Part shown: positions 17,188 through 62,634 of the stretch, piece by piece
Numbering within the stretch: position 1 is the first letter of the stretch
Layout: each line of letters opens with the position of its first letter
Source: Candidatus Gilichinskyi gelida
GTDB taxonomy: Bacteria > Acidobacteriota > Thermoanaerobaculia > Gp7-AA8
Reading direction: 5' to 3'
NCBI GenBank assembly: GCA_038040385.1
Contig: JBBPII010000008.1
Coordinates: 109,091-173,090 of the forward strand
Length of the DNA: 64,000 bases
The notes under the pieces: model-generated
Seen by the model: the letters and a program-made list of their open reading frames with translations, nothing else
Told to the model about the DNA's origin: nothing
The model's database searches: none
Position numbers and translations under genes: made by a program

Positions 17188-19170
17188 ATGCCGAGAAAGC
17201 GCCGCGTCGTCGGCACCGCCGGCCACATCGACCACGGCAAGACCGCGCTGGTGAAGGCGCTCACCGGCGTGGACACCGACCGCCTCCCCGAGGAGAAGCG
17301 GCGCGGCATCACCATCGACCTGGGGTTCGCGAGCTGGTTCACCGACGACTACCAGATCGGCTTCATCGACGTCCCCGGCCACGAGCGCTTCGTCAAGAAC
17401 ATGCTCGCGGGGGTGGGGGGGATCGACAGCGCGCTGTTGGTCGTCGCCGCCGACGAGTCGATCAAGCCGCAGACGCGCGAACACTTCGACATCTGCAAGC
17501 TCCTCGGCATCCGCACCGGTGTCGTGGCCATCACCAAGAGCGATCTGGTCGACCCCGACATCATCGACCTGGTGCGCCTCGAGATCGACGAGCTCGTGGC
17601 CGGCAGTTTCCTGGCCGGAAAGCCGATCGTGCCGGTATCGAGCGTGACCGGCGCGGGCCTCGACGTCCTGCGCGCGGCGATCGTGAAGTCGGTGTCCGAG
17701 GTCGACGATCGCGACGGCACCACGCGCGTGTTCCGCCTGCCGATCGATCGCGTCTTCACCATGAAGGGCTTCGGCTCGGTGATCACCGGGACGACCTTCG
17801 CCGGGCGGCTGAATGTCGAGAGCGACGTGGAAACGCTGCCCGGCGGCGACCGCAGCCGTGCGCGCAACATTCAGGTGCACGGTGAAGCGCGCGAGCTCGC
17901 GTCGGCCGGCGAGCGGACGTCGGTCAATCTGCCGGACATCCCGCTCGAGCGACTGCACCGCGGGCAGCAGCTCGTCGCGCCGAACACGCTGCGTACGTCG
18001 CAGGTCATCACCGTGAAACTCGATCTCTTGAAGACGGCGAAGCCGCTGAAGGAACAGACGCGCATCCGCTTTCATCACCTCGCCGCGGAATTGCTCGGAA
18101 GCGTGCGCTTCGTCGACCAGACGGTGGAGCTGAAGCCGGGGGGGAGCGCATTCGCCCAGGTGCGGCTCGAGTCGCCGGTGGTCGCCGCCGCGGGCGACCG
18201 ATTCGTCGTCCGCCGCTACTCGCCGGCCATCACCGTCGGCGGCGGCGTGATCCTCGACGCGCACCTGCCGAAGCTGAGCCGCGCCACGCGGCCGGAGCTG
18301 CTCGACGTCCTCGCCGGCGGCACGCTGCCGCAGCGCGTCGAGCTGATGGCGAAACTGGAGGGGCTGCGCGGGCTCACCGTTCACGAGGTTCAGGCGCGGA
18401 CGGGAATCCGCGTCGAGACGCTGACGAAGGAGCTCAAGCCCTCACCCCGCGCTTCGCGCCACCCTCTCCCGCAAGCGGGAGAGGGGGAAAACCAGCGCCC
18501 CTCTCCCGCCGCAGCGGGAGAGGGTCCGCGAAGCGGGGGTGAGGGTCTCGTCGACACCGGCAACCTCCGGTGGATCCACGTTGACGTCCTCGCCGACTTC
18601 CGGCGCCGCGCCATGGAGTTCCTGCAGGCGTACTTCCGCGACAACCGCATGGCGATGAACGTCCCGAAGGGGGAGTTCGTGCAGAAGCTCCTGCCGCACG
18701 GCGCGGACGGGCAGCTCGTGAACTTCCTCCTGCAGGACCTGGCGCGCGAGAAGATCGTGGTCATGGAGGGCGACGCGCTCGACGTCCCCGGCCGCTCAAA
18801 GAAGCTGGGCGGCGCGGAGGGGGAGCTGGCGCGCTCGATCGAGCAGCGCTTCGCCGAGGCCGGCCTGCAGCCGCCGCCGGTCTCCGAACTGATCAACGAG
18901 CGGACGCAGAAAGCGAAGATCATCGAGGGCGTGGTCGGCTTCCTGGTGAAGCAAGGGACGCTGGTTCGCCTCGCCGAGGGGCTTTACGTGCACCGCGACG
19001 CGCTGGCGGGCGCGCGCGAGCGGATGACGTCGCGCAAGGGCGAGACGATCGACGTCGGCCAGTTCAAGGAGTTCTTCGGCCTGTCGCGGAAGGTGGCCAT
19101 CCCGCTGCTGGAGTGGTTCGATCGAGAGGGGGTCACGAAGCGGGTCGGGGACGCGCGGCGGGTTCTTTGA
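17188..19170 (+). CDS. selB: Selenocysteine-specific translation elongation factor SelB carrying an in-frame ~36-aa insertion
   Basis: G-domain motifs (GHIDHGKTAL, DVPGHERF, TKSD) plus an extended C-terminal winged-helix region. 660 aa against the usual ~615–640. Confidence 0.88.
   Translation: MPRKRRVVGTAGHIDHGKTALVKALTGVDTDRLPEEKRRGITIDLGFASWFTDDYQIGFIDVPGHERFVKNMLAGVGGIDSALLVVAADESIKPQTREHFDICKLLGIRTGVVAITKSDLVDPDIIDLVRLEIDELVAGSFLAGKPIVPVSSVTGAGLDVLRAAIVKSVSEVDDRDGTTRVFRLPIDRVFTMKGFGSVITGTTFAGRLNVESDVETLPGGDRSRARNIQVHGEARELASAGERTSVNLPDIPLERLHRGQQLVAPNTLRTSQVITVKLDLLKTAKPLKEQTRIRFHHLAAELLGSVRFVDQTVELKPGGSAFAQVRLESPVVAAAGDRFVVRRYSPAITVGGGVILDAHLPKLSRATRPELLDVLAGGTLPQRVELMAKLEGLRGLTVHEVQARTGIRVETLTKELKPSPRASRHPLPQAGEGENQRPSPAAAGEGPRSGGEGLVDTGNLRWIHVDVLADFRRRAMEFLQAYFRDNRMAMNVPKGEFVQKLLPHGADGQLVNFLLQDLAREKIVVMEGDALDVPGRSKKLGGAEGELARSIEQRFAEAGLQPPPVSELINERTQKAKIIEGVVGFLVKQGTLVRLAEGLYVHRDALAGARERMTSRKGETIDVGQFKEFFGLSRKVAIPLLEWFDREGVTKRVGDARRVL
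18439..18545. repeat. Nested palindromic element (outer inverted repeat enclosing two tandem CCCTCTCCCGC/GCGGGAGAGGG hairpins) inside the selB CDS
   Basis: Outer arms are CCCTCACCCCGCGCTTCGCG and CGCGAAGCGGGGGTGAGGG. Inner hairpins lie at 18462-18485 and 18499-18524. The total length is a multiple of 3 and encodes PSPRASRHPLPQAGEGENQRPSPAAAGEGPRSGGEG. Confidence 0.8.
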
Positions 19171-26522: not shown

Positions 26523-27241
26523 ACATCCGCTCCATCACCGCGCCGAATCCCGGACCGTTCACGCTCGACGGCACCCGCACCTACCTCATCGACGACACGG
26601 CGGTGCTCGATCCGGGGCCGGCGATCGGCGCGCACATCGACGCCATCGCCGCGGCGATGCCCAACCTGCGCACCATCTTCATCACCCACCGCCACGGCGA
26701 CCACGCCCCGGCCGCCGTCCCGCTGAAGCAGCGGACCGGCGCGCGAATCGTCGCCCCGCGCGGCGTGCTCGATGAGACCGACCGAGTCGTCGAAGACGGC
26801 GAGGTCGTCGACGGGCTGGAAGTGATCGCCACGCCCGGCCACACCAACGAGCACGTCTGCTACCTCACCGCGGACGGCGATCTCTTCACCGGCGACACCA
26901 TCCTCGGCAGCGGCACGACCACCATCTTCCCGCCCGACGGCCACATGGGCGATTACATCCGCTCGCTGCGGCGCCTGCACGAACGCCGGCCGCGCCGCAT
27001 CTATCCCGCGCACGGCCCCACGCGCGACGACGCCGTGGCGCTGATCGACGAGTACATCGCCCACCGCCTTCAGCGCGAGCAGCAGGTCCTCGACGCCATC
27101 GCCGCCGGCGCGCGCAGCGTCGAAGAGATGCGCCGCCGCATCTATCCCGATCTCGACCCGCGCCTGCACGGCGCGGCGGAGATCCAGATACGCGCGCACC
27201 TCATCAAATTGGAAGAGGAGGGCCGGCTCCCGTCATCCTGA
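26519..27241 (+). CDS. MBL-fold metallo-hydrolase
   Basis: HxHxDH motif (THRHGDHAP), then TPGHTNEHV and the GDTILG Asp. The GTG start overlaps the NUDIX stop. The last codons plus stop (..PSS*) are supplied by REP copy A. Confidence 0.8.
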   Translation: MNIRSITAPNPGPFTLDGTRTYLIDDTAVLDPGPAIGAHIDAIAAAMPNLRTIFITHRHGDHAPAAVPLKQRTGARIVAPRGVLDETDRVVEDGEVVDGLEVIATPGHTNEHVCYLTADGDLFTGDTILGSGTTTIFPPDGHMGDYIRSLRRLHERRPRRIYPAHGPTRDDAVALIDEYIAHRLQREQQVLDAIAAGARSVEEMRRRIYPDLDPRLHGAAEIQIRAHLIKLEEEGRLPSS

Positions 27242-27307
27242 GCCGCGCAGACGGCGAAGGATCTCAAGATGCGGCATCCGGAGATCCTTCGCTACGCTCA
27301 GGATGAC
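27232..27307. repeat. REP/MITE-like palindromic element, copy A
   Basis: Left arm GTCATCCTGAGCCGCGCAGACGGCGAAGGATCTC, loop, right arm GAGATCCTTCGCTACGCTCAGGATGAC. The same left arm recurs at 38504, 44875 and 57293. Confidence 0.85.
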
Positions 27308-27312
27308 GGAAG

Positions 27313-37684: not shown

Positions 37685-37784
37685 GTCATCCCGAGCCGCG
37701 AAGACGGCGAGGGATCCCCCGCCTACGGAGCGATCCGTTTCACACTGCGGGGGATCCCTCGCGCTCTTCGGCGCTCGGGATGAC
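37685..37784. repeat. REP/MITE-like palindromic element, divergent copy E
   Basis: GTCATCCCGAGCCGCGAAGACGGCGAGGGATCCCCC, a 28-nt loop, then GGGGGATCCCTCGCGCTCTTCGGCGCTCGGGATGAC. Sits between the divergent sigma and ABC genes. Confidence 0.75.
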
Positions 37785-37796
37785 ACGGCCACGCTC

Positions 37797-38513
37797 ATGA
37801 TCGAAGTCCGAAATCTCACAAAGAAATACGGGGAGTTCACGGCGGTCGACGAGGTCTCGCTGGAGGTCCGCCGCGGCGAGATTTTCGGCTTCCTCGGCCC
37901 CAACGGCGCGGGCAAGACCACCACCATCCGCATTCTCGCCGGGCTCTCGCTGCCGACCTCGGGCGAGGTGCGCATCGACGGCCTCGACGTGGTCAAGGAG
38001 GGCCTCCGGATCAAGGCCATGACCGGCTACGTCCCCGACCGCCCCTTCCTCTACGAGAAGCTGACCGGCCGCGAGCTGCTGCAGTTCGTGGCCAATCTCT
38101 ACCGCCGGGAGTGGCCGGACTGCGAAGCGCGGGCGATGGAGTTGCTGCGCTATTTCGACATCGAGCAGTGGGCCGACGCGCGGATCGAGAACCTCTCGCA
38201 CGGAATGAAGCAGAAGCTCGTGCTCGTCTCCGCTTTGGTGCACGACCCCGCGCTGCTGATCATCGACGAGCCGATGGTCGGCCTCGACGCGCTGGCGCAG
38301 AAGCAGGTGAAGCTGCTCATGCGCCGCCTGGCCGAGGAGAAGAAGACGGTGTTCCTGACCACGCACACGCTCTCGGTGGCCGAGGCGGTCTGCGACCGGA
38401 TCGCCATCATCAACCACGGACGGATCGTCGCCAGCGGCACGACCGCGGAGTTGAAGAGCGATCGGGCGCTGGAAGAGGTGTTCCTGGAGCTGACGTACCC
38501 AACGTCATCCTGA
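37797..38513 (+). CDS. ABC transporter ATP-binding protein with no adjacent permease
   Basis: Walker A GPNGAGKTT, signature LSHGMKQKL, Walker B LLIIDEP. Its last codons plus stop (..YPTSS*) lie inside REP copy B. Confidence 0.85.
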   Translation: MIEVRNLTKKYGEFTAVDEVSLEVRRGEIFGFLGPNGAGKTTTIRILAGLSLPTSGEVRIDGLDVVKEGLRIKAMTGYVPDRPFLYEKLTGRELLQFVANLYRREWPDCEARAMELLRYFDIEQWADARIENLSHGMKQKLVLVSALVHDPALLIIDEPMVGLDALAQKQVKLLMRRLAEEKKTVFLTTHTLSVAEAVCDRIAIINHGRIVASGTTAELKSDRALEEVFLELTYPTSS

Positions 38514-38580
38514 GCCGCGCAGACGGCGAAGGATCTCCGCGGCTGAGATCCTTCGCCGCGCTTCGCCGGCTCAGGATGAC
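38504..38580. repeat. REP/MITE-like palindromic element, copy B
   Basis: Left arm identical to copy A; right arm GAGATCCTTCGCCGCGCTTCGCCGGCTCAGGATGAC. Contains the ABC stop (TGA at 38511-38513) and the prmC ATG (38576-38578). Confidence 0.85.
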
Positions 38581-39379
38581 GCTCGAGACGATCGCTGATT
38601 TGCGCGCGAAGCTACGCGGCCTGATCGACCCTCGCGACGCCGACCTCCTCATCGCCGACGCCGCCGGCCGCACCCGCGCCTGGGTGCTCGCGCACGGCGA
38701 CGAGTTGATCGACGCCGCGCCCATCGAGGCGCTCGCCGCGCGGCGCGCCGCGGGCGAGCCGCTGCAGTACATCCGCGGGCGCTGCGACTTTTTCGGCCGC
38801 GAGTTCCTGGTCGACGACCGGGTGCTGATTCCGCGGCCGGAGACGGAACTGCTGGTGGAGACGGCGATCATGCGCGCGCCGCGCGGGGCGCGGGTGGTGG
38901 ACGTCGGCGCCGGCAGCGGCTGCGTGGCCATCTCGCTGGAGCGGGCGCGGACGGACTTGAAGGTCGTCGCCGTGGATGTCTCCATCGGCGCGCTGGCGGT
39001 GGCGGCGCGCAACGCCCGCGCGCACAAGTCGCGCGCGCGCTTCGCCGCGTCCGACCTCCTCGGCTCGCTTCGCGGCGCGTTCGACGTCATCGTCTCCAAC
39101 CCCCCCTACATCGCCGGCAGCGACGTCGCCGGCCTGCAGGTGGAGGTCCGCGATCACGAGCCGCGCGCCGCCCTCACGCCCGGCCCGCGCGGAACGGAGA
39201 TCATCGAGCGCATCTACGACGCCGCGGGAGCGGCTATGGTCATCCTGGAGATCGGTTTCGGGCAGGAGCGGGCCGTGCGCGAGGCCGCGGCGGCGCGCGG
39301 ATTCACGGTCGAGGAGGTGCGCAACGACCTCGCCGGCATTCCGCGCGTCGTCGTATCATCGCCCCATGGTCGGCAATGA
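38576..39379 (+). CDS. prmC: Release-factor glutamine methyltransferase (HemK)
   Basis: NPPY motif (VSNPPYIAG), a SAM-binding VVDVGAGSGCVAIS motif, and N-terminal similarity to PrmC. 267 aa. Confidence 0.85.
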   Translation: MTLETIADLRAKLRGLIDPRDADLLIADAAGRTRAWVLAHGDELIDAAPIEALAARRAAGEPLQYIRGRCDFFGREFLVDDRVLIPRPETELLVETAIMRAPRGARVVDVGAGSGCVAISLERARTDLKVVAVDVSIGALAVAARNARAHKSRARFAASDLLGSLRGAFDVIVSNPPYIAGSDVAGLQVEVRDHEPRAALTPGPRGTEIIERIYDAAGAAMVILEIGFGQERAVREAAAARGFTVEEVRNDLAGIPRVVVSSPHGRQ

Positions 39380-41803: not shown

Positions 41804-44800
41804 ATGTCCATCAAGCGCGTCGTCCTCGCCCTGTCCCTTCTCTCTTCGTCCGTTTTTGCCCAGCAGACCATCATCGACGAGATCGGCAAGCTGGAGTCCG
41901 TCCGCGACCCGAAGTGCTACGCCACCGCGTCGCGGCTGGAGGACTTCATCTACGGCACGCCGCTGGAGACGCAAGCGCGGTTCGAGAAGATCGCGCTGCA
42001 GAAACGCTTGATCCGCGCGTTGTGGGAGAAGGCCTCGGCCGCGGGCACGGCGCAGGTCACTGTCGACGCGCTGCGGCCGGCGATCCAGCAGCTCATTCCG
42101 TACAAACAACTTGCGAACGGCGACTGGGACGTCGCCGGCACCACGATCACCGCGCGCGACAAGCGGCAGTACGGCAGCGTGGCTTACGCCCTGCGCGCCC
42201 TGCTCGCCGTCCAGCAGGACCTGCTGCTCGATCCCGGCGCGAGGCTCCTCCCGCTCGACACCGCGTCGGTCGAGCTGATGAAAGAGGCGATCGACCTCAC
42301 CACCCTCGCCGCCCTGCAACAGGCGGACGGCGCCGCGCGAAGGCTGAATCAGGAAAAGATCACGCCGGAGCTGCTGACTCGGGCATGGACGAGCTTCGTG
42401 CCCGAAAGTGTAGCGGCGCCCGCTTCGGGCGCCGACGACCGGCGGCCGAGAGCGGCCGCCGCTACACTCGAAAAGTTCGCCACCATCAAGGCCGTGGTCG
42501 CCGAGAAGCTCGAGGCATTCAGCAAGTACAACGACATCGCCGCGCCCGTTTTCCTCCGCAACGTGCAGGTGTACTTTGCGCGCCACCTCTGGCCGACCGA
42601 TCCGGCCGAGGGGAAGGCGTTCAAGGACGAGTTCACCGAGACCATGGTGGCCTGGACGCGCGACGTCACCCTCCTGGCCGAGAAGAACGCGAAGAAGAAC
42701 GGCCACCCGCTCATCCGCGTCACCGACGTCGAGCCGGCGCTGCAGGCCTTCCAGCCGCACGAGATGAACCGCTACGAGGACATCATCTACTTCCCGCGCC
42801 TCCCGCGCGCCGAGCGGGTCACCATCGAGGCCTACGACATCGACGCCTTCCGCGATCCCGGCGTTCACTGGATGTACCTGAGCGAAGTGCTCAACGATCC
42901 GATGTACCCCGGTACGCTGGAGCCAGATCCGTTCGCCGCTGAGCTGCTCACCGAGGGCGCCGCGCAGGAGGGAGTGCTCATCCTCCGCCTCGCCGGGCGC
43001 TTCGCGGAAGCGGAGGACTCCGACCGGCTGAATCGCGGACATCTGGCGAAATCGCTGAAGAACATTCAGACCCTGCTCGACAGGCACGCCTCCATGCCCG
43101 CGGCGAAAAAGGCGCCGGAGACGGTTGTCTCCGCGAAGCCGTCCGCGGTGCCGTCGACGGGAACCTACTTCACCGACGTCACCGGCGCCGCGGGCATCCG
43201 CTTCGAGCACCGCATCTCCGACTGGCTGGCGCGCTTCATCCGCGGCTACACGGTGGTCGAGGGCGGCAACGTGCGCCTTGCCGTTCCTCCCACGTTCGGC
43301 GGCTCGGGCGTGGCGGCCGAGGACATCGACAATGACGGCGACGACGACGTGCTGATCCTCGGCGGCGCGGGCAACGCGCTCTATCTGAATGACGGGAAGG
43401 GCAACTTCAAGGACGTCACCGAATCGGCCGGACTGGGATGGCGGCGCGCCGACGGCAACGCCGGCGAGCCGCGGCAGCCGATCGTCGCCGACTTCGACAA
43501 CGACGGCCTCGAGGACATCCTCATCACCTACGTCGACGACGACCACCGCCTCTACAAGAACCTCGGCAGCGCGCGGTTCGAGGACGTCACCGCGAAGGCG
43601 GGACTCGGCGGGAAGGGCTCGGTCGCCGGGCCGGCCACCACGATCGACTTCGATGGCGACGGCTTGCTCGATCTCTACATCGGCTACTTCGGCGACTACC
43701 TGCACGGCGTGCTGCCGACGCTCTCGCGCTACAACGCGAACGCCCTGCCGGACAAGCTGTTCCGCAACAGGGGCAACCTCCAGTTCCAGGACGTCAGCGC
43801 CGGCAGCGGTGTGGAGAACACCGGCTGGGCGCAGGCCGTCGGCCACGCGGACATTGACGGCGACGGGCGCGAGGACCTCATCTGCGGCAACGACTTCGGC
43901 GTCAACGCCTATTACCGCAACCTCGGCAACGGCAAGTTCGAGAACGTCGCGCAGAAGCTGGGGCTCGACAAGCCGAGCTACACCATGAGCGTCGGCATCA
44001 CCGACTTGAATCGAGACACGTATCCCGACATCTACATCGCCAACATCGTGACCATGGACAAGGACGAGAAGTACGTCCTCCCAGACACCAAGACCCGCAT
44101 GAAGTTCAATCCCGCCAAGATGGCCAACATGCGCGTGGTGGAGGCCAACGATCTCTTCACCTCGGTGGCCCAGAAGGCGAAGCTGCAGTCGTACGAGCAG
44201 TCCAACGCCGTGGGACGCGGCTACAAGTCGACCGGCTGGTCGTGGGACGCCGACTTCTTCGACTACGACAACGACGGCGACGACGATCTCTACTGCGTCA
44301 ACGGCATGAACGAGTACGCGGTTTACTCCAGCGTCAACCCGTACCTGACCGATCCGAGCGGCAAACCGAGCAGCGCGATCCTGCCGGTGGCGGAGAAGGA
44401 GCAGAACGTCTTCTTCGTCAATCAGCGCGGGAAACTGAACGAGGAGTCGAAGGCCAGCGGCGCCGACCTCCTCGGCAACTCCCGCAGCGTGGCGTACTTT
44501 GATGCCGACGCCGACGGCGATCTCGACATGATCGTCAACGCCTTCAACGGCCCGGCGACGCTCTATCGCAACAACAGCCAGTCGAACGGCAACCACTGGA
44601 TCAAGATCCGCCTGACCGGCGATCCAAAGAAGGGCGTCTCGCGCGATGCCATCGGCGCGAAGATCCTCGTCGACAGCGCGCACAACAAAGGCCTCTGGCG
44701 CGAAGTCTTCAGCACCATCGGCTACCTCTCCGTCCATCCGAAGGAGCAGCACCTCGGGCTCGGCAGCGACAAGACGGTGAACGTGACCGTGGTGTGGCCG

Positions 44801-44884
44801 AACGGCGAGCGGGAGAGGTTCAACGGGCTGTCGACGGACCGCGTCCATCGCATCGTGCAGGGCGGCGGCCGCCCGTCATCCTGA
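41804..44884 (+). CDS. Secreted FG-GAP/VCBS-repeat protein with an ASPIC/UnbV C-terminal domain and an uncharacterised ~430-aa N-terminal domain
   Basis: Signal peptide MSIKRVVLALSLLSSSVFAQQ. Repeated DxDxDGxxD FG-GAP-like motifs (DIDNDGDDD, DFDNDGLED, DFDGDGLLD, DIDGDGRED...). C-terminal NGNHWIKIRLTG...GAKILV UnbV-like region. The final GRPSS* comes from REP copy C. Confidence 0.7.
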   Translation: MSIKRVVLALSLLSSSVFAQQTIIDEIGKLESVRDPKCYATASRLEDFIYGTPLETQARFEKIALQKRLIRALWEKASAAGTAQVTVDALRPAIQQLIPYKQLANGDWDVAGTTITARDKRQYGSVAYALRALLAVQQDLLLDPGARLLPLDTASVELMKEAIDLTTLAALQQADGAARRLNQEKITPELLTRAWTSFVPESVAAPASGADDRRPRAAAATLEKFATIKAVVAEKLEAFSKYNDIAAPVFLRNVQVYFARHLWPTDPAEGKAFKDEFTETMVAWTRDVTLLAEKNAKKNGHPLIRVTDVEPALQAFQPHEMNRYEDIIYFPRLPRAERVTIEAYDIDAFRDPGVHWMYLSEVLNDPMYPGTLEPDPFAAELLTEGAAQEGVLILRLAGRFAEAEDSDRLNRGHLAKSLKNIQTLLDRHASMPAAKKAPETVVSAKPSAVPSTGTYFTDVTGAAGIRFEHRISDWLARFIRGYTVVEGGNVRLAVPPTFGGSGVAAEDIDNDGDDDVLILGGAGNALYLNDGKGNFKDVTESAGLGWRRADGNAGEPRQPIVADFDNDGLEDILITYVDDDHRLYKNLGSARFEDVTAKAGLGGKGSVAGPATTIDFDGDGLLDLYIGYFGDYLHGVLPTLSRYNANALPDKLFRNRGNLQFQDVSAGSGVENTGWAQAVGHADIDGDGREDLICGNDFGVNAYYRNLGNGKFENVAQKLGLDKPSYTMSVGITDLNRDTYPDIYIANIVTMDKDEKYVLPDTKTRMKFNPAKMANMRVVEANDLFTSVAQKAKLQSYEQSNAVGRGYKSTGWSWDADFFDYDNDGDDDLYCVNGMNEYAVYSSVNPYLTDPSGKPSSAILPVAEKEQNVFFVNQRGKLNEESKASGADLLGNSRSVAYFDADADGDLDMIVNAFNGPATLYRNNSQSNGNHWIKIRLTGDPKKGVSRDAIGAKILVDSAHNKGLWREVFSTIGYLSVHPKEQHLGLGSDKTVNVTVVWPNGERERFNGLSTDRVHRIVQGGGRPSS

Positions 44885-44949
44885 GCCGCGCAGACGGCGA
44901 AGGATCTCGAAATGCGCATCCTGAGATTCCTCGCTGCGCTCGGAATGAC
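44875..44949. repeat. REP/MITE-like palindromic element, copy C
   Basis: Left arm identical to copy A; right arm diverged to GAGATTCCTCGCTGCGCTCGGAATGAC. Contains the stop of the upstream gene and the ATG plus first ~13 codons of the downstream gene. Confidence 0.8.
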
Positions 44950-46642
44950 GGCGGCACTCGCCGTTCCCGCGCACGCCAACCGGTTGGCCAAAGCCACCAG
45001 CCCCTACCTCCGCCAACACGCGAACAACCCCGTCGACTGGTACCCGTGGGGCGACGCGGCGCTGGCGAAGGCGAAAAAAGAGAACAAGCCGATCTTCCTC
45101 TCCATCGGCTATTCGAGCTGCCACTGGTGCCACGTGATGGAGGCCGAGTCGTTCTCGCAGCCGGACGTCGCCGCGGTGCTCAATCGCGCGTACGTCTCCA
45201 TCAAGGTCGACCGCGAAGAGCGGCCGGACATCGACGCCGCCTACACCGCCGCGGCGCTGAAGCTGCTCGACGAGGCCGGCTGGCCGCTGAATCTCATGCT
45301 CACGCCGGACGGCAAGCCGTTCTTCGCCGCGACGTACCTCTCGAAGGAGCGGCTGATCGACGTCGCCGGCAAGCTGGCGACGGCGTGGCGCGAGCAGCCG
45401 GACCACGTCGCCGCGTCGGCGCGCATGATCGTCACGCAGCTTCGGCCGGCCGCATCCGAGGACGCCGAGGCGCTCGGGCGGCAGGATTTGGACGCCGCCT
45501 ATCGCGAGCTGGCGGCGGAGTTCGACCCGAAGAACGGCGGCTTCGGCGGCGCGCCGAAGTTTCCGTCGCCGCAGAACCTCTTCTTCCTCCTCCGCTACTG
45601 GAAGCGCACCGGCGAACCGCGGGCGCTGGCGATGGTGGAGGCCACGCTACACGCCATGCGCAACAGCGCGCTGTTCGACGCCAAGGCGTTCGGCTTCCAC
45701 CGCTACGCCACCGACGCCGCGTGGCAGAAGCCGCATTTCGAGAAGATGCTGTACGACCAGGCGCTGCTCGCGCTGGCGTACGCCGAGGCGTACCAGGCGA
45801 CGCGGAAGGAGGAGTACGCGGACACCGCGCGCAAGGTGTTCGAGTACGTGCTGCGCGACCTCCGCGCGCCGAACGGCGCGTTCTGGTCGGCAAAGGACGC
45901 CGACAGCGCGAATCGCGACGACAAGATCCTCACTGACTGGAACGGCCTGATGATCGCCGCGCTGGCCGCGGGGGCGACGGCGCTCGACGAGCCGGCGTAC
46001 GCCGCGGCGGCAGCGCGCGCGGCGAAGGCGATCTCGAGCGTCCGCCCCTACCTCGATGACTACGCGTTCTTTATCTGGGGCCTTCTCAACCTGTACGAGG
46101 CGTCGGCCGAGGCGCGGTGGCTGGAGCAGGCCATCCGCCTGCAGGACGAATCGCTCAAGTCGTTCGCCGGCGGCTACATGACGGCATCGGACGATCTCTT
46201 CGTCCGCCTGCGCATCGTCCGCGACTCGGCGACGCCCGCCGGCAACGCCGTGCAGCTCGCGAACCTCCTCCGCCTCTCCCGCATGACCGCCCGCGACAAC
46301 TACGCCGCCGCCGCGAAATCGCTCATGCGCTCCGCCGCCGCCGAGGTGCGCGCCATCCCCTCCGCCGCGCCGCATTTTCTGAGCGCCGTCGACTTCGCCG
46401 TCGGCCCGTCGTTCGAGATCGTGCTCGCGGGGAAGGACGTCGCGCCGCTCAAGCGCGCGGTGTTCAGCTCTTTCGTCCCGAACAAGGTGGTGCTCTACCG
46501 TTCGGACCAAATAGTACGAATCGCACCATTCACCAAAATGCAGACCGCCCGCGGTGGGAAGGCGACGGCGTACGTCTGCCGCGATTACGTGTGCAATCTG
46601 CCGACGGGGGATGCGGGGGTGGTTGCCGAGCTGCTGAAGTAG
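44912..46642 (+). CDS. Secreted thioredoxin-domain protein of the YyaL/DUF255 family
   Basis: [13 protein letters not shown]...[16 protein letters not shown] thioredoxin-like N-terminal domain, then an (alpha/alpha)6-like domain. The N-terminal [22 protein letters not shown] signal peptide is encoded within REP copy C. Confidence 0.8.
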
Positions 46643-51970: not shown

Positions 51971-52059
51971 TCCTGACCCTGAGCGAAGCGAAGGGGAAGG
52001 ATCTGGCGCCCATGTGCGCTGCGCAAGTGGGCGCCAGATCCCTCGCTGCGCTCGGGATA
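51971..52059. repeat. REP/MITE-like palindromic element, divergent copy F
   Basis: CCTGACCCTGAGCGAAGCGAAGGGGAAGGATCTGGCGCCCA...TGGGCGCCAGATCCCTCGCTGCGCTCGGGATAA. The right arm matches the family's GAGATCCTTCGCTGCGCTCGGAATGAC. Confidence 0.7.
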
Positions 52060-52073
52060 AACTAAAAAAACCC

Positions 52074-53918
52074 GTGATAAGAGCCATCGTCCATCAAGGC
52101 TCCATCGGCACTTCGATCGAGTACTTCGCGGCCGTCGCCGGGCCGGACGTCGATCGCCGCTTCTTCTTCGAGCGGATCGACACCGGGCGCGGCGACGTCA
52201 TCCGCTATTTCGGCGGCAGCTCGGAGATCGTCCTCAATCCCGAGGGGGTGCGGTTTCGCGGGAACGGCGGCATCTTCGGCGAGTACATGTTTGGCGGACA
52301 TCTCCCCGTCGGCGACCTGCTCAACGAAGAGGTGGTCAACCGGCTGGTGTTGTTCGGCGCGAAGACCGACGCCGCTCACGAGCTGCGCTTCACCACCAAC
52401 ACCGAGGGCTTCGAGACCTACGACAACCTCTTCCTGCAGGGCAACGCGGTGGCGAACTATTTCTTCTTCGTCGACGACCGGAAGCGCATCGCGGACGTCG
52501 CCGACCGGCAGGAGAAGACGCTCAAGAGCATCGGCAAGCTGCTGAAGCGCTCGCGCCGCGTCGGCGCCGGCAATTTCCTCGCGCTCTCACACGAGATCCT
52601 CGAGGCGCTGGACGAGCCGCAGAGCACGATCGTCGTGGTGCGCATCGTCCATCGCGCCAATCAGCGGCTCTCCGAGATCTGTCATGAGGCGTACAAGTCC
52701 GGCGCGTCGCTCGACCAGGCGGCGGAGAGCGTCCCCGACGTCACCGACCTCGGGCGCATCGAGCCGTATCAGCGCGAGCGCGTGCAGATCGATACCATCT
52801 ACCACCACCCCGACAACCGGGAGATCATCGACGAGTACAAGCGCGTGCTCGCGTCGTGTGCCGGCGCGCTGATCGACTCCTCGGCGCGCGCGCGGCTCAT
52901 GCGCCTGCGCACCCTGGCGCTGCGCAACGAGATTCCGCCCGCCATCTTCGACACCCTCGAGGAGATCGTCCTTCAGGACCGCCCGACCGTGGCTAAGGCC
53001 GACGAGCCGCATTACATCAGCACCACCCGCGAGATCCTGGTCGGCCTTCTCCTCGGCCGCAACCTGCAGCGCAAGCTCTCGCCGCTCGATCTGGTGGTGC
53101 TGATGGAGAACAAGCAGAAAGCCACGGCCAATCGCGACCAAACCTTCGAGGAGCTGTTGCTCGACACCGGCCGCCTCATCGACGAGATCGGCCGCGAAGA
53201 GGAGGACTTCGAGCGGCTCGAGTCCTTCGGCGAGCTGGTCACGCTGTTCGACCGCATCGACCACACCACCACCCTCATCAACCGGCTGGCGTTCATGGAC
53301 GACGTCGAGCTGTCGCCGGAGCAGGTTCGATCGCTGATGGGCAACATGCAGGTGTTCGAAGGCCTGCAGCGCGGGTTGTTCCAGTTGCTCTTCGTCGATC
53401 CGATCGTCTCCAACGAGTACGCGCTGTCGTTCGGAAAGAAGAAGCTGTACACGCTCACCCTCGGACTCCTGTCGATGCAGAACGCCGAGGCGTCGGTGGC
53501 GGACGTCGCGCAATCCATTCGCGACATCAACCGCAACGAGCGCGCGTACTTTGCGGTCTATCGCCTGGCGCGGCGGCGCATGGCGAACTTCTACCTCGAG
53601 CTCAACACCATCGAGGGACGCGAGACGTTCCGCCGCGAGATCAAGGGCGAAGTCGCCCACGACCCCGAGATCGTCGATCTGCAGGACGTGATCACCGAGT
53701 CGCTGTTCGAAGACGTGATCACCAAGATCCGGCTGGAGGCCTTCTACATCAACCAGCTCCTGCCTCGGATCATCGAGGAGCAGGACGCCAAGGTGCGGAA
53801 CGACTTCCTGTCCAACTCGGGCCTGGACCGGTTCCAGATCGAGGAGCTGGAGAGCGAGTATTTCGACATGCGCGCGTTCCCGCCGCAGTTGCTCGAGGCG
53901 ATCCAGCGTCCGGCGTGA
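52074..53918 (+). CDS. Large (~610 aa) hypothetical cytoplasmic protein
   Basis: Long ORF with coding-like composition. The start is uncertain: GTG at 52074, or ATG at 52014 inside REP copy F. No recognised domain. Confidence 0.5.
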   Translation: MIRAIVHQGSIGTSIEYFAAVAGPDVDRRFFFERIDTGRGDVIRYFGGSSEIVLNPEGVRFRGNGGIFGEYMFGGHLPVGDLLNEEVVNRLVLFGAKTDAAHELRFTTNTEGFETYDNLFLQGNAVANYFFFVDDRKRIADVADRQEKTLKSIGKLLKRSRRVGAGNFLALSHEILEALDEPQSTIVVVRIVHRANQRLSEICHEAYKSGASLDQAAESVPDVTDLGRIEPYQRERVQIDTIYHHPDNREIIDEYKRVLASCAGALIDSSARARLMRLRTLALRNEIPPAIFDTLEEIVLQDRPTVAKADEPHYISTTREILVGLLLGRNLQRKLSPLDLVVLMENKQKATANRDQTFEELLLDTGRLIDEIGREEEDFERLESFGELVTLFDRIDHTTTLINRLAFMDDVELSPEQVRSLMGNMQVFEGLQRGLFQLLFVDPIVSNEYALSFGKKKLYTLTLGLLSMQNAEASVADVAQSIRDINRNERAYFAVYRLARRRMANFYLELNTIEGRETFRREIKGEVAHDPEIVDLQDVITESLFEDVITKIRLEAFYINQLLPRIIEEQDAKVRNDFLSNSGLDRFQIEELESEYFDMRAFPPQLLEAIQRPA

Positions 53919-53926
53919 TCGAGCCT

Positions 53927-53983
53927 GTCAAGTAGACTTGACAAACACGGAACTCGATCCTAGATTGTCAAGGAAACTTGACT
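53927..53983. promoter_or_regulatory. Two copies of a 7-4-7 inverted repeat (TGTCAAG-N4-CTTGACA), putative operator for the downstream XRE regulator
   Basis: TGTCAAGTAGACTTGACA at 53927-53944 and TTGTCAAGGAAACTTGAC at 53965-53982. The centres are ~39 bp apart and lie 15–70 bp upstream of the membrane-protein/XRE operon start. Confidence 0.5.
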
Positions 53984-55313: not shown

Positions 55314-57292
<1,979 letters not shown>

Positions 57293-57302
<10 letters not shown>

Positions 57303-57378
57303 GCCGCGCAGACGGCGAAGGATCTCGTCCGCGCTACTTGAGATCCTTCCGCTTCGCTTCGCTCAGCGTCAGGATGAC
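57293..57378. repeat. REP/MITE-like palindromic element, copy D
   Basis: Left arm identical to copy A; right arm GAGATCCTTCCGCTTCGCTTCGCTCAGCGTCAGGATGAC. Holds the stop of the plus-strand YyaL gene, and (reverse strand) the last 14 codons plus stop of the minus-strand GT39 gene. Confidence 0.85.
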
Positions 57379-59601
57379 GAGGCGGCGGAACTCGTCCGAC
57401 TTGATCATCCGCCCCGGCACGCGCGCGCGCGGCAGTTTCGCCAGCTCGCGCTCCTCGGCCGGCTCCGGCAGGCGCTGCAGCAGGACGGCGTACGCGCGGC
57501 GCAGGAACGCGCGGTCGTCCTCGCAGTCGCTGCCGTAGGCGATCGTCTCCACGACGTCGTCGAGGTGGAGCTCGCCGCGCGCCAGGCGGGGCCAGACTTC
57601 GAGCGGATCGAATCCGAGGCGGCCGATGAGCGCTTCGACCGGCTCGCGGCAGAGGGTGGCGGGCGGGAAGCGGGTGCGCGTGTTGCGCCATGCGGTTTTC
57701 TCGTCGATGAAGGGGCCGCTCGCCAAGCGAACGGAATACAAGCTTCCAGGCGCGGCAGCTAGTGGATCCTCGACGGCGATCCAGGCGAAGGCGACGGCGA
57801 GCTCGCGACGATCGGTCGCTTTCGGATCGAGGTCGGCCGGCGCCGCCGCCCGCCCGAAGTCGAAGGCCAGCGTGTTCAACCCGTCGCGCCACACCGCGGC
57901 CGGCGCGGCGATCGACCGCTCCGTCCACCCGGGAGCCAGCGTCAGCTCGCCGAGGGGCCGCCCGTTGAGCGAGGCGCGGAGCGTCTGCGCCGGCAGCGCG
58001 CCGTGGTGGAACGGCAGCACGCGCATGCGGATGGTGCGATCGCGCCGGCCCCAGCGCGGAAAGGTCACCGACGCCCGCGTGCCCATCGCCCAGCGGAAGC
58101 CTTCCGGATCCGCCCAGCCGGCGTCGAGATAGCGATTCTCCGCGGCGGCGAGATCGATCAGCAGGCGCGGTCCGATCGCCGCGGACGCCGCCCGCCACTC
58201 CGCGGGGCCGGCCCGCTCCCGAAGAAAATCTCCGGTGTAGTGCAGCCGGAATCGCTCCAAGGGACTGCCCAGAACCATCGGATAGCGGCACATCCAGGCG
58301 CGGACCTCATTGTCGCTGCCGGCGGTGACGAGCCACGCCGCGGGGTGCGCGCCGATCACCAGTTGCGCCACCGAAACGTACGGGACGCCTTCGAGCGTGG
58401 CGCCCTTCGGCAGCCGGCGGAGGTAGTAGCGCAGCGAGACCTCCGTCCAAGGCTGGTCGGCGATGACGACGTCGTCGGGGCGCGCGTACCGTTCGATCTT
58501 CGCCGCGATCGCGCGCCAGTCGAGCTTCCGGAAGGCTTCGGTGCGCGCCGCGCGCCACTCCTGCGACGCCAGCGCAGCGACGATGGCCAACGCCAGCACC
58601 AGCGGCGCGCGTTGGAGCACGAGCCGCGCGACGCTCGCGATGCCGATGCCAGCCAGCAGAACGTAACCGACCAACGCCGGCGTGACGTAGCGCGCCGCGT
58701 AGAAATGGTCCAGGTGCTTCAACGCGCCGAGCGCGATGGCCAGCGGCAGCAGCGCCATTCCTCCGATGACGACGCCCTCGACGCGGTCGCGCCGCATCGC
58801 GGCGACGACGCCGATCAGCGCGAGAGCCAGCATCGCCACCGCCGCCCGCCCGCCGGCGTGCGTGCCCAGCGCCGAAACGGAGAAGGTCCGCAGCAGCGTG
58901 GCGAAGAACGCGTAATCGAGCGGCGGAAACGCCGGCCAGCTCTCGTTGGCCATCGGTTTCGCGGCGTAGACGACGGGGAAAAGCGCCAGCGCGCCGGCAG
59001 CGATGGCGGCGACGATCCAATACCAACGCTTGCCCATGAGCAGCGCTGCCGCGACGGCGACGATCAGCGCCGCGGCGACGACCGGCGCCGCCGTCGCCGA
59101 CGAATAGAGCAGCGCAACGATCAAGGCGGCCGCCGCGGCGATCGAGCGCGCGCGGAGCAGGACGACGATGAGCGCCGCGGTGAGGAACATCATCAGCGCG
59201 TACGGGCGCGCTTCGCGGCTGTAGTAAACGTGCAGCGGCGACACCGCCAGCAGGATCGCAGCGGCTGCCGCCGCCACCGCGTCACGCTGTTTCGCCGCCA
59301 GCCAGACCAGGGCGATGGCCGCCAATCCAAGCAGCGCGGCCGGCAGGCGGCCCGCGGCTTCCGACGAGCCGAACGCGCGCGCCGCCAGTTGCGTCGCGTA
59401 GTAGAGCGGGCCGTGCTCCTCGGCGAAACCGGCCAGCCAGCGCCACCACGGCCCCGAAGCCGCCGCCGTCGTGAGGCGCTGGCCCAGGATCTCGTCGAGC
59501 CAGTAGCTGGGCGTGCCGAGGCCGTCGAAGCGGAGGAAGGCGCCGGCGGCGATGGCCAGAAGCGCTACGGCGTCTTTGGAATGACGACCCAGCCGCTCCA
59601 C
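57334..59601 (-). CDS. GT-C-fold glycosyltransferase (family 39 / ArnT-PMT-like) membrane protein with a large C-terminal soluble domain
   Basis: An N-terminal ~330 aa with ~11 TM helices and ArnT/PMT-like loop motifs, then a ~400-aa soluble region. The start is uncertain because it overlaps the upstream FN3 gene by 37 nt. Confidence 0.6.
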   Translation of the reverse strand: MERLGRHSKDAVALLAIAAGAFLRFDGLGTPSYWLDEILGQRLTTAAASGPWWRWLAGFAEEHGPLYYATQLAARAFGSSEAAGRLPAALLGLAAIALVWLAAKQRDAVAAAAAAILLAVSPLHVYYSREARPYALMMFLTAALIVVLLRARSIAAAAALIVALLYSSATAAPVVAAALIVAVAAALLMGKRWYWIVAAIAAGALALFPVVYAAKPMANESWPAFPPLDYAFFATLLRTFSVSALGTHAGGRAAVAMLALALIGVVAAMRRDRVEGVVIGGMALLPLAIALGALKHLDHFYAARYVTPALVGYVLLAGIGIASVARLVLQRAPLVLALAIVAALASQEWRAARTEAFRKLDWRAIAAKIERYARPDDVVIADQPWTEVSLRYYLRRLPKGATLEGVPYVSVAQLVIGAHPAAWLVTAGSDNEVRAWMCRYPMVLGSPLERFRLHYTGDFLRERAGPAEWRAASAAIGPRLLIDLAAAENRYLDAGWADPEGFRWAMGTRASVTFPRWGRRDRTIRMRVLPFHHGALPAQTLRASLNGRPLGELTLAPGWTERSIAAPAAVWRDGLNTLAFDFGRAAAPADLDPKATDRRELAVAFAWIAVEDPLAAAPGSLYSVRLASGPFIDEKTAWRNTRTRFPPATLCREPVEALIGRLGFDPLEVWPRLARGELHLDDVVETIAYGSDCEDDRAFLRRAYAVLLQRLPEPAEERELAKLPRARVPGRMIKSDEFRRLVILTLSEAKRKDLK

Positions 59602-62569: not shown

Positions 62570-62575
62570 GAAGAG

Positions 62576-62626
62576 AGTTGTCAGTTGTCGGTTGTCAGTT
62601 GTCGACAACCGATAACCGACAACTGA
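62576..62626. repeat. Tandem-heptamer palindrome, GTTGNC family, copy H3 (terminator-like, after glmS)
   Basis: AGTTGTCAGTTGTCGGTTGTCAGTTGTCG / CGACAACCGATAACCGACAACTGA, 6 nt after the glmS stop. Confidence 0.8.
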
Positions 62627-62634
62627 GAACCTTC

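Follow-up and report, generated by a model that had tools for sequence, protein, structure and literature searches.

We describe a dispersed hairpin repeat that has become part of a coding sequence in Candidatus Gilichinskyi gelida (Acidobacteriota; Thermoanaerobaculia). The window, by which we mean the whole stretch of 64,000 nucleotides (nt) analysed from contig JBBPII010000008.1, contains a YyaL/SSP411-like gene whose 5′ end is read from one copy of this repeat, here called copy C. The N-terminus thus encoded has the layout of a signal peptide. Based on the sequence and on the state of the same junction in related loci, we consider it probable that the export signal of the YyaL-like protein was replaced or rebuilt by copy C, rather than invented by it. 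The features concerned are the following:

41804..44884, + strand: upstream FG-GAP/ASPIC-UnbV gene, 1026 amino acids (aa) (FG-GAP_3, 1.5e-38; UnbV_ASPIC, 5.8e-13)
44873..44951, + strand: repeat copy C, 79 nt, an imperfect hairpin with left arm 44873-44908, loop at about 44909-44922 and right arm 44923-44951
44882..44884, + strand: TGA in the left terminus GTCATCCTGA, stop codon of the upstream ASPIC/FG-GAP gene
44900..44904, + strand: AAGGA, a putative Shine-Dalgarno (SD) motif of the inner left arm that precedes the ATG by 7 nt
44912..44950, + strand: repeat-coded part of the predicted signal peptide (loop ATG and right arm, codons 1-13), giving the n-region and the first half of the h-region
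44945..44947, + strand: alternative in-frame ATG (Met12) in the right terminus GGAATGAC, whose product is too short for a signal peptide
44951..44977, + strand: native non-repeat tail AALAVPAHA (residues 14-22), which completes the h-region and forms the c-region, Ala being at -3 and -1 and cleavage being predicted after 44977, between AHA and N
44978..46642, + strand: mature YyaL/SSP411-like protein, in which a C-terminal domain follows the Thioredox_DsbH domain with its CHWC (PF03190, 4.3e-65; PDB 7TKV, 1.4e-77)
55314..57302, + strand: long YyaL paralog, 662 aa, with no N-terminal extension and with its stop codon from repeat copy D

The open reading frame (ORF) 44912..46642 (+) encodes 576 aa, of which the first 22 form an extension before NRLA. 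Its product is a member of the Thioredox_DsbH family (PF03190), with a near full-domain match (residues 23-177, profile positions 2-162 of 163) that includes the CxxC motif (CHWC), and PDB 7TKV is its closest solved structure. Because the match starts from profile position 2 at residue 23, the 22-residue extension is real. In the long paralog, which is presumed to be cytoplasmic, the same domain starts from residue 2, and the long form found in most other phyla aligns to the focal protein only from about residue 21-23 on. This difference had been pointed out in an initial annotation made from the sequence alone, which contrasted the extension of the 44912 gene with the direct start of the 55314 paralog. 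That annotation also called the 55314 gene the paralog without the repeat, which is incorrect: copy D (57292-57379) lies at its 3′ end and supplies its stop.

The first start codon past the in-frame TGA at 44882-44884 is the ATG at 44912, and an independent gene call in a Logan assembly uses the same start. Two further in-frame starts follow, ATG 44945 (Met12) and TTG 44984 (Leu25). The single other record of the exact window protein is L209 (Logan SRR28961292 contig, 1792 nt). It begins 31 nt upstream of the ATG, within the repeat, and ends just past the gene, the short-read assembly having broken at the repeat.

Read from ATG 44912, the extension has the three regions of a signal peptide. 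The n-region, MRILR, has two Arg within residues 2-5; the h-region consists of 13 uncharged residues with a best 9-aa Kyte-Doolittle mean of 2.0; and the c-region reads P-A-H-A before N, with Pro at -4, Ala at -3 and -1, and the Pfam domain from residue 23. The AxA motif is retained in relatives described below (AHA in the window, AYA in L001, AHA in L002). The repeat accounts for 13 of the 22 signal codons and the remaining 9 are native. The initial annotation had assigned 21 extra codons to the right arm of the repeat. This stands for the ATG and residues 1-13, which are read from the loop and right arm, and does not stand for residues 14-22, which are non-repeat sequence, the repeat ending at 44951.

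Copy C belongs to a dispersed family that is represented five times in the window. Its left arm carries the 32-mer CATCCTGAGCCGCGCAGACGGCGAAGGATCTC without a mismatch (32/32), and this 32-mer is found exactly at four window sites, in copies A, B2, C and D, while the fifth copy (B) is a variant. The other four copies are:

27230..27309, + strand: copy A, whose TGA ends an ORF for a metallo-beta-lactamase (MBL)-fold hydrolase (..LPSS before the stop)
37685..37784, + strand: copy B, CCCGAG/GAGGGA subtype with compensated arms, -80.9 kcal/mol
38503..38582, + strand: copy B2, whose TGA ends an ABC ATPase gene (..PTSS before the stop) and whose terminal ATG at 38576 starts a PrmC-like gene (MTLETIADL..)
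57292..57379, + strand: copy D, whose TGA ends the long YyaL paralog (..NTSS before the stop)

Outside the window, the exact 32-mer occurs in at least 120 metagenome contigs (loci L086-L205), mostly from soil, with G+C from 0.51 to 0.70, a spread that corresponds to many different genomes. Such conservation of the left arm would imply that it has either spread horizontally in recent times or been under strong constraint. Complete copies measure 67-165 nt (median 90); their loop is variable, and GCTCAGGATGAC is the usual end of their right arm. We refer to the family, which is unnamed, as the GTCATCCTGAGC...GCTCAGGATGAC hairpin repeat. Copy C conforms to this description: its right arm, GAGATTCCTCGCTGCGCTCGGAATGACGG, is complementary to the left arm and ends in ..GGATGAC after a variable loop. 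This right arm is a minority variant that is also found in L088, L096 and L098. An inverted-repeat search gives 86% complementarity between the terminal arms of copy C, and in RNA folding no other family member in the window forms so weak a hairpin (-35.9 kcal/mol, z -3.3, versus -45.8 to -80.9 kcal/mol for the others). Its loop start, ATGCG, is typical of the family. In around 19% of the copies (20/105), an ATG falls within the opening 8 nt of the loop, following GAAGGA of the left arm.

No Rfam family scored above its gathering threshold in the window, and in 44800-45050 only chance-level matches were obtained (E >= 0.7). A literature search with the repeat sequence returned only unrelated primers.

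One could argue that the signal sequence came first and that it resembles the repeat by chance or convergence. The general low complexity of signal peptides is the only point we find for this, and we give it practically no chance. The resemblance concerns a complete element with left arm, loop and right arm, and the exact left-arm 32-mer lies upstream of the ATG, the left arm being situated in the 3′ end of the upstream gene. The typical loop start and the complementary termini belong to the same element, and the 48-mer quoted in the initial annotation is unique in the window with a chance expectation of 0. The claim of that annotation that a signal peptide is encoded by a palindromic repeat is in this respect borne out for the N-terminal part of the signal-like sequence, which is read from the loop and right arm of a genuine dispersed repeat.

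To place copy C in an evolutionary context, we compared the window with five syntenic relatives, L001-L005 (six loci in total; nt identities are taken over the mature coding regions):

L004, 80% nt identity: no repeat; the upstream stop and a GTG start overlap (GTGA); N-terminus MRLAVALLLIAAPLAAAP before NRLA
L005, 77% nt identity: a GAATTC-rich hairpin directly after the stop, with the native tail as in L004; N-terminus MKNSEFAIRTSKFFIL-LLLIAASLAAAP before NRLA
L002, 89% nt identity: a hairpin of the type found in L005; N-terminus MKNSEFEIRSSKFFIL-IVLALGVAIPAHA before NRLA
L003, 91% nt identity: a GCAGAAG-heptamer hairpin; N-terminus MSRLLIVLISAFCFLPSAFSA before NRLA
L001, 89% nt identity: loop and right arm as in the window; the same 13 repeat-coded residues, then AALTLPAYA before NHLA

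The junction of L004 folds no better than shuffled sequences (z -0.6) and encodes a plain signal peptide. The native tail of L005, LLLLIAASLAAAP, is the same as that of L004. In L002 the tail reads ..LALGVAIPAHA before NRLA and follows a repeat that is unrelated to copy C, and its AIPAHA is homologous to AVPAHA of the window.

The wider subfamily has the same kind of N-terminus. Among the 120 best matches of a protein search with the short form, which we use as the ortholog set, an extension of at least 12 aa precedes the conserved N(R/H)L..S(P/R)YL in 112, and 107 of the 120 have a strongly hydrophobic 9-residue window in the N-terminal extension. Named short-form orthologs at 55-60% identity come from metagenome-assembled genomes (MAGs) of Thermoanaerobaculia and other Acidobacteriota. 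The synteny of YyaL-like and ASPIC/FG-GAP genes persists down to 57% identity, and the upstream ASPIC/FG-GAP protein of the window has its own signal peptide, MSIKRVVLALSLLSSSVFA, followed by QQ. Matches of the cytoplasmic long form, with its motif CHWCHVME and from many phyla, dominated a scan of contigs; the sole true ortholog in that scan was L006, 57% identical and from a MAG of Thermoanaerobaculia. Judged by peptide motif, recognisable repeat-type sequence is present in 37 of 122 N-termini (the 120 orthologs and the two window proteins).

Because these orthologs, L004 and the exported syntenic neighbour carry signal-type N-termini, export of the short subfamily predates copy C. As judged from these N-termini, the short YyaL-like subfamily is ancestrally exported and its compartment is unchanged by copy C. 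The initial annotation had instead proposed the recent creation of an export signal, by which a cytoplasmic YyaL paralog switched compartment. The window does contain a paralog with no extension, and the N-terminal 13 codons of the focal gene are repeat DNA. Nevertheless, we regard de novo export as very improbable. The two paralogs share only 47% identity in the N-terminal half and 32% in the C-terminal half, with a length difference of 86 aa, and the duplication is therefore old. Signal peptides are found across Thermoanaerobaculia and other Acidobacteriota relatives at 57% identity with conserved synteny, L004 has a normal one with no repeat, and 9 of the 22 signal residues of the focal protein are themselves native. 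The divergence from L001 given below (dS 0.335) also speaks against a recent event. Among the orthologs, a predicted secreted form with no repeat is present in L004, and export is older than the repeat; the pre-existing N-terminal portions are nevertheless not homologous to the repeat-coded one.

The comparison with L001 bears on the start of translation. The first 45 nt from the ATG are identical in the window and L001 (45/45), compared to 89.1% identity for the mature coding sequence. The stretch from the TGA to the ATG measures 27 nt in the window and 32 nt in L001, with insertions and deletions (indels) that are not multiples of 3. The left arm of L001 differs too, and L001 retains GGAAGGATCTCAAAATG at the position of the AAGGA motif. 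The ATG itself is kept, and the sequence that it opens is free of indels. Frame-breaking indels before the ATG and a preserved frame after it are the pattern expected if translation starts at ATG 44912. The stop of the ASPIC/FG-GAP gene and the ATG of the YyaL-like gene are in frame in the window, 27 nt apart, which led us to consider a fusion by read-through. Given the spacing of 35 nt in L001, the shared frame is probably a coincidence.

For the mature protein, dN/dS between the window and L001 is 0.17 (dS 0.335); the gene is therefore under purifying selection and stayed functional after the insertion. Copy C, being common to both loci at this dS, is probably not a very recent insertion. 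We also attempted to order the insertions among the window, L001, L002 and L003. Informative sites split 20/25/25 over the three quartets, which gives no order.

These data also bear on the possibility that the insertion damaged export, so that the protein is translated with a poor or non-functional signal and the gene is heading to loss or to a new cytoplasmic role. The consensus arm of the family would indeed read LRSFAALRMT, which places an Arg in the middle of the hydrophobic core. However, the actual arm reads RFLAALGMT, leaving the core uncharged, the c-region is conserved, and the purifying selection since the split from L001 has acted on a gene whose N-terminus is shared by both loci. 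We consider damaged export improbable.

We asked whether the four differences between this right arm and the consensus could be an adaptation after insertion, and rejected them as evidence of it. The variant GAGATTCCTC..GCTCGGAATGAC is found with the same left arm in the unrelated copies L088, L096 and L098 (2/105 copies overall). The hydrophobic right arm is therefore not creditable to selection after insertion, and may predate it.

Copy C is one of several repeats at this junction. Three unrelated hairpins are found there among relatives that are around 10% diverged in DNA, each in frame. In L002 and L005, no canonical start codon occurs between the hairpin and the mature N-terminus, and translation there must therefore begin inside the repeat. 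More distant orthologs have at least two further hairpin families in the signal-coding region, again in frame. The cases found are:

L206: (AGAAGGC)n ... (GCCTTCT)n hairpin, read as MKAEGRRQKAEVRR...SAFCLLPSAF (z -13.3)
L207: (GGATGAA)n-type hairpin (z -7.3)
L006: CACAGAGA-type hairpin (z -9.8)
L208: 145-nt palindrome that separates the native signal peptide from the mature domain with the frame kept (z -7.3)

In L208 the palindrome (1527-1673, -103 kcal/mol) lies between VILGALLLWSA and NRL.. and adds a linker of around 45 residues (GVSPAG...PARRQRS); the ortholog group of this type comprises P0014, P0015, P0023, P0040, P0045, P0047-49 and P0060. In another set of orthologs (P0007, P0011, P0012, P0018, P0019, P0044 and L006 2975-3034), the called start is a GTG with which a hairpin arm ends (VVAF.SAIT..). 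Their full open frame begins before the hairpin (MKESITTETQRAQRILRVLCVSVV..), so gene-caller starts are unreliable in this family.

In a further alternative, the repeat of the focal gene is intergenic, the real start is Met12 or TTG Leu25, and either the protein is not exported or its signal is not repeat-coded. Both alternative starts are present in frame. The terminal ATG of the repeat, equivalent to Met12, is apparently a real start elsewhere (L091, L143, L150 and the PrmC-like gene of the window at 38576), many N-terminal overlaps with such repeats have been seen as mis-called starts (PMC3733652), and the hairpin partly occludes the SD motif and the ATG. Against this, an extension starting at Met12 would lack a charged n-region and have only about 7 apolar residues, and yet it would retain a c-region (AHA, or AYA in L001) that serves no purpose in the cytoplasm. 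Orthologs are nearly all of the exported type and the gene is under purifying selection. In addition, L001 has kept the ATG and the frame despite frame-breaking indels on the 5′ side, and the two loci with no canonical start past the hairpin argue for translation from within a repeat. We judge an annotation artefact unlikely.

Rebuilding of the signal by copy C is thus the reading that we favour, and several observations weigh against it. Export and cleavage are predicted from simple rules and from orthology, and translation could in reality begin at Met12 (44945) or TTG Leu25 (44984). The hairpin (-35.9 kcal/mol) partly hides the AAGGA motif and the surroundings of the ATG, which could hinder initiation unless ribosomes that terminate at the TGA 27 nt upstream are coupled to it. 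Given the 20/25/25 split of the quartets, the 45/45 identity with L001 could also be explained by recombination at the junction between lineages. Finally, in a random sample of 28 copies that have a forward downstream gene, only the focal copy gives a clear signal-like repeat-coded N-terminus; recruitment as a signal peptide is rare in the repeat family of copy C.

A possible second signal-like case was seen in L153, with the same repeat and the same frame (minus strand; the left arm is at reverse-complement position 810, and the case lies around 90 nt downstream of it). Its right arm reads LLRSFAPLRIT and continues into GAALLLLTVAA-RGDLKIYLAGNPSD.. in an open frame of 307 codons. Its terminal ATG has become ATA, and TTG codons occur where the arm begins.

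The repeat has a marked position relative to upstream genes. In a sample of copies with a clear forward upstream gene, the stop of this gene is in all 39 either within the element or precedes it by no more than 12 nt. The element's own TGA (GTCATCCTGA) serves as the upstream stop in 16 of the 39, giving proteins that end in ..SS (for example L091, L101, L105, L120 and L122). Four of these are window cases, so that four of the five window copies provide a stop (27239-27241, 38511-38513, 44882-44884 and 57300-57302). At the other end, 14 of 28 sampled copies have their right-terminal ATG in the reading frame of the downstream gene. This ATG is a probable start of other genes, as in the window, where the PrmC-like methyltransferase gene 38576-39379 apparently starts (MTLETIADL..) at the ATG of the right terminus CAGGATGAC of copy B2. 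For the ASPIC/FG-GAP protein, the last codons, ..P-S-S-stop, are read from the left terminus of copy C. Its relatives end with no PSS tail, in ..QGGAK (L002), ..QGGGNK (L003) and ..EQK (L004).

Other inverted repeats were noted in the window. Inside the gene of a SelB-like elongation factor (ORF 17188..19170), a compound palindrome at ~18440-18545, CCTCACCCC..CCCTCTCCCGC..GCGGGAGAGGG..GGGGTGAGG, is in frame and read as PSPRASRHPLPQAGEGENQRPSPAAAGEGPRSGGEG; it resembles the Rickettsia palindromic elements (RPEs) discussed below and belongs to another repeat family. A (GTTGTCA)n / (GACAACC)n heptamer hairpin at 62572-62630 is strictly intergenic, 3 nt past the stop of glmS and 5 nt before the start of an MGMT-like gene, and has the architecture of the signal-coding heptamer hairpins of L003, L206 and L207. 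Strong inverted repeats are also found at 51996-52044, spanning the GTG start of ORF 52014..53918, and at 53927-53982, just past the stop of that ORF.

These properties suggest how the chimeric signal may have formed. Copy C would have inserted at a tight junction between the co-directional ASPIC/FG-GAP and YyaL-like genes, both of which encode proteins that are predicted to be exported. The ancestral junction would have been an overlap of upstream stop and downstream start (GTGA), as seen in the repeat-free L004 and also, as an overlap, in L208. An element that inserts on or just after a stop codon would then land in the first codons of the downstream signal peptide, because stop and start overlap there. 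The insertion would have cost the junction its original stop and start together with the beginning of the signal peptide, and the element would have replaced all of them. Its left terminus GTCATCCTGA would provide the new stop and add -PSS to the upstream protein, the inner left arm would provide the AAGGA ribosome-binding motif, and the loop would provide an ATG 7 nt later. Read in frame, the right arm would provide the basic n-region (MRILR) and half of the hydrophobic core, joined to the native AALAVPAHA. The product would be a chimeric signal of 22 residues, of the Sec/signal-peptidase-I type, with predicted cleavage between AHA and N, and the protein would stay periplasmic like its orthologs. 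Signal peptides would lend themselves to such an event, as they tolerate nearly any charged-then-hydrophobic sequence and require no more than a start codon, some basic residues and an apolar segment; most other proteins would be damaged.

Kaiser and colleagues reportedly found in 1987 that random sequences can act as export signals. The focal peptide shares the n-h-c architecture and AxA cleavage motif of Sec-type signals, and their tolerance explains why unrelated repeat-coded peptides can stand in for the part that was lost. What differs here is that the donor is a natural mobile hairpin, and that several substitutions from different repeat families are found at one orthologous junction.

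The mature protein is a clear member of the YyaL/SSP411 (SPATA20-like) family (PF03190; PDB 7TKV and 3IRA). Exported thioredoxin-like members with a DsbH fold are known, for example the periplasmic DsbH of Chlamydia. Common bacterial YyaL proteins have around 660-690 aa and no signal peptide. By contrast, the focal subfamily has a mature form of around 555 aa, signal peptides and linkage to ASPIC/FG-GAP genes.

The concept of a palindromic repeat that is translated in frame is not new and has been described for RPEs, intragenic repetitive extragenic palindromic (REP) sequences and MITEs, or miniature inverted-repeat transposable elements (PMC10969869; PMC3733652). Copy C resembles RPEs and in-frame MITE fusions in that it is a short dispersed palindrome translated in frame in a functional gene: from ATG 44912 the frame runs without a stop across the right arm to reach the conserved domain, and is kept open in L001. 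It differs from RPEs in its place and role, as it lies at the extreme 5′ end and replaces the stop, SD motif, start, n-region and h-region instead of adding a passenger loop at the protein surface. Its hosts are Acidobacteriota-related soil bacteria rather than Rickettsia and its consensus is different. This sets copy C apart from RPEs by description, and we claim no membership. A review of MITEs makes no mention of signal peptides (0 occurrences of 'signal'; PMC10969869), and our literature searches on repeat-derived signal peptides found no report of a repeat supplying one.

A second comparison is with REPs, in particular the CGTC-tagged repeats described by Di Nocera et al. 2013 (PMC3733652). 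Like those, copies of the present family lie a few nt from upstream stops, between co-directional or convergent genes, and many begin with CGTC. Here, however, the CGTC pairs with a GACG at the opposite end, and TGTC is the start of many copies. The size and stem depart from a classical REP: members of this family measure 67-165 nt (median 90) with a bulged stem of around 30 bp, compared to 20-40 nt, a stem of 8-9 bp and a loop of 4-5 nt. The CGTC REPs are reported to be without a REP-associated tyrosine transposase (RAYT) (PMC3733652). Overlaps of REPs with the N- and C-termini of ORFs have been recorded in the same study, where the N-terminal ones are mostly treated as mis-annotated starts. 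In the present case, orthology argues that the overlap is translated. What appears to be new is thus the in-frame insertion of a palindrome that would rebuild a signal peptide, and the presence of several different hairpins at the same signal.

How far this can be generalised is less certain. Tentatively, and with more doubt than confidence, we propose that hairpin repeats in these soil bacteria act as portable patches of stop, ribosome site, start and signal peptide. Inserting beside stop codons, they would time and again overwrite the 5′ end of the downstream gene where gene junctions overlap, which would be a general and so far undescribed route of N-terminal evolution for exported proteins. 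It is equally speculative, although conceivable, that at least five hairpin families have in this manner rebuilt the signal-coding region of the YyaL-like gene, with further palindromes in frame behind it. The heptamer hairpins illustrate why such repeats might be suitable. Their purine-rich arm would code for Lys, Glu, Arg and Gly and the complementary arm for Leu, Phe, Ser, Cys and Pro, so that reading through the hairpin would give an n-region and then an h-region. Arms of opposite hydropathy (for example KAEGRRQKAE and SAFCLLPSAF) may pre-adapt hairpins to the layout of a signal peptide.

In practice, the starts that gene callers and signal-peptide predictors assign to exported proteins will be unstable in Acidobacteriota-like genomes rich in repeats; the called start of several of the present orthologs lies within a hairpin arm. 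If the repeat-coded N-termini are functional, these loci would form a natural series in which an essential targeting signal has been destroyed and rebuilt by selfish DNA with its function kept, and in which three different solutions are found within around 10% DNA divergence.

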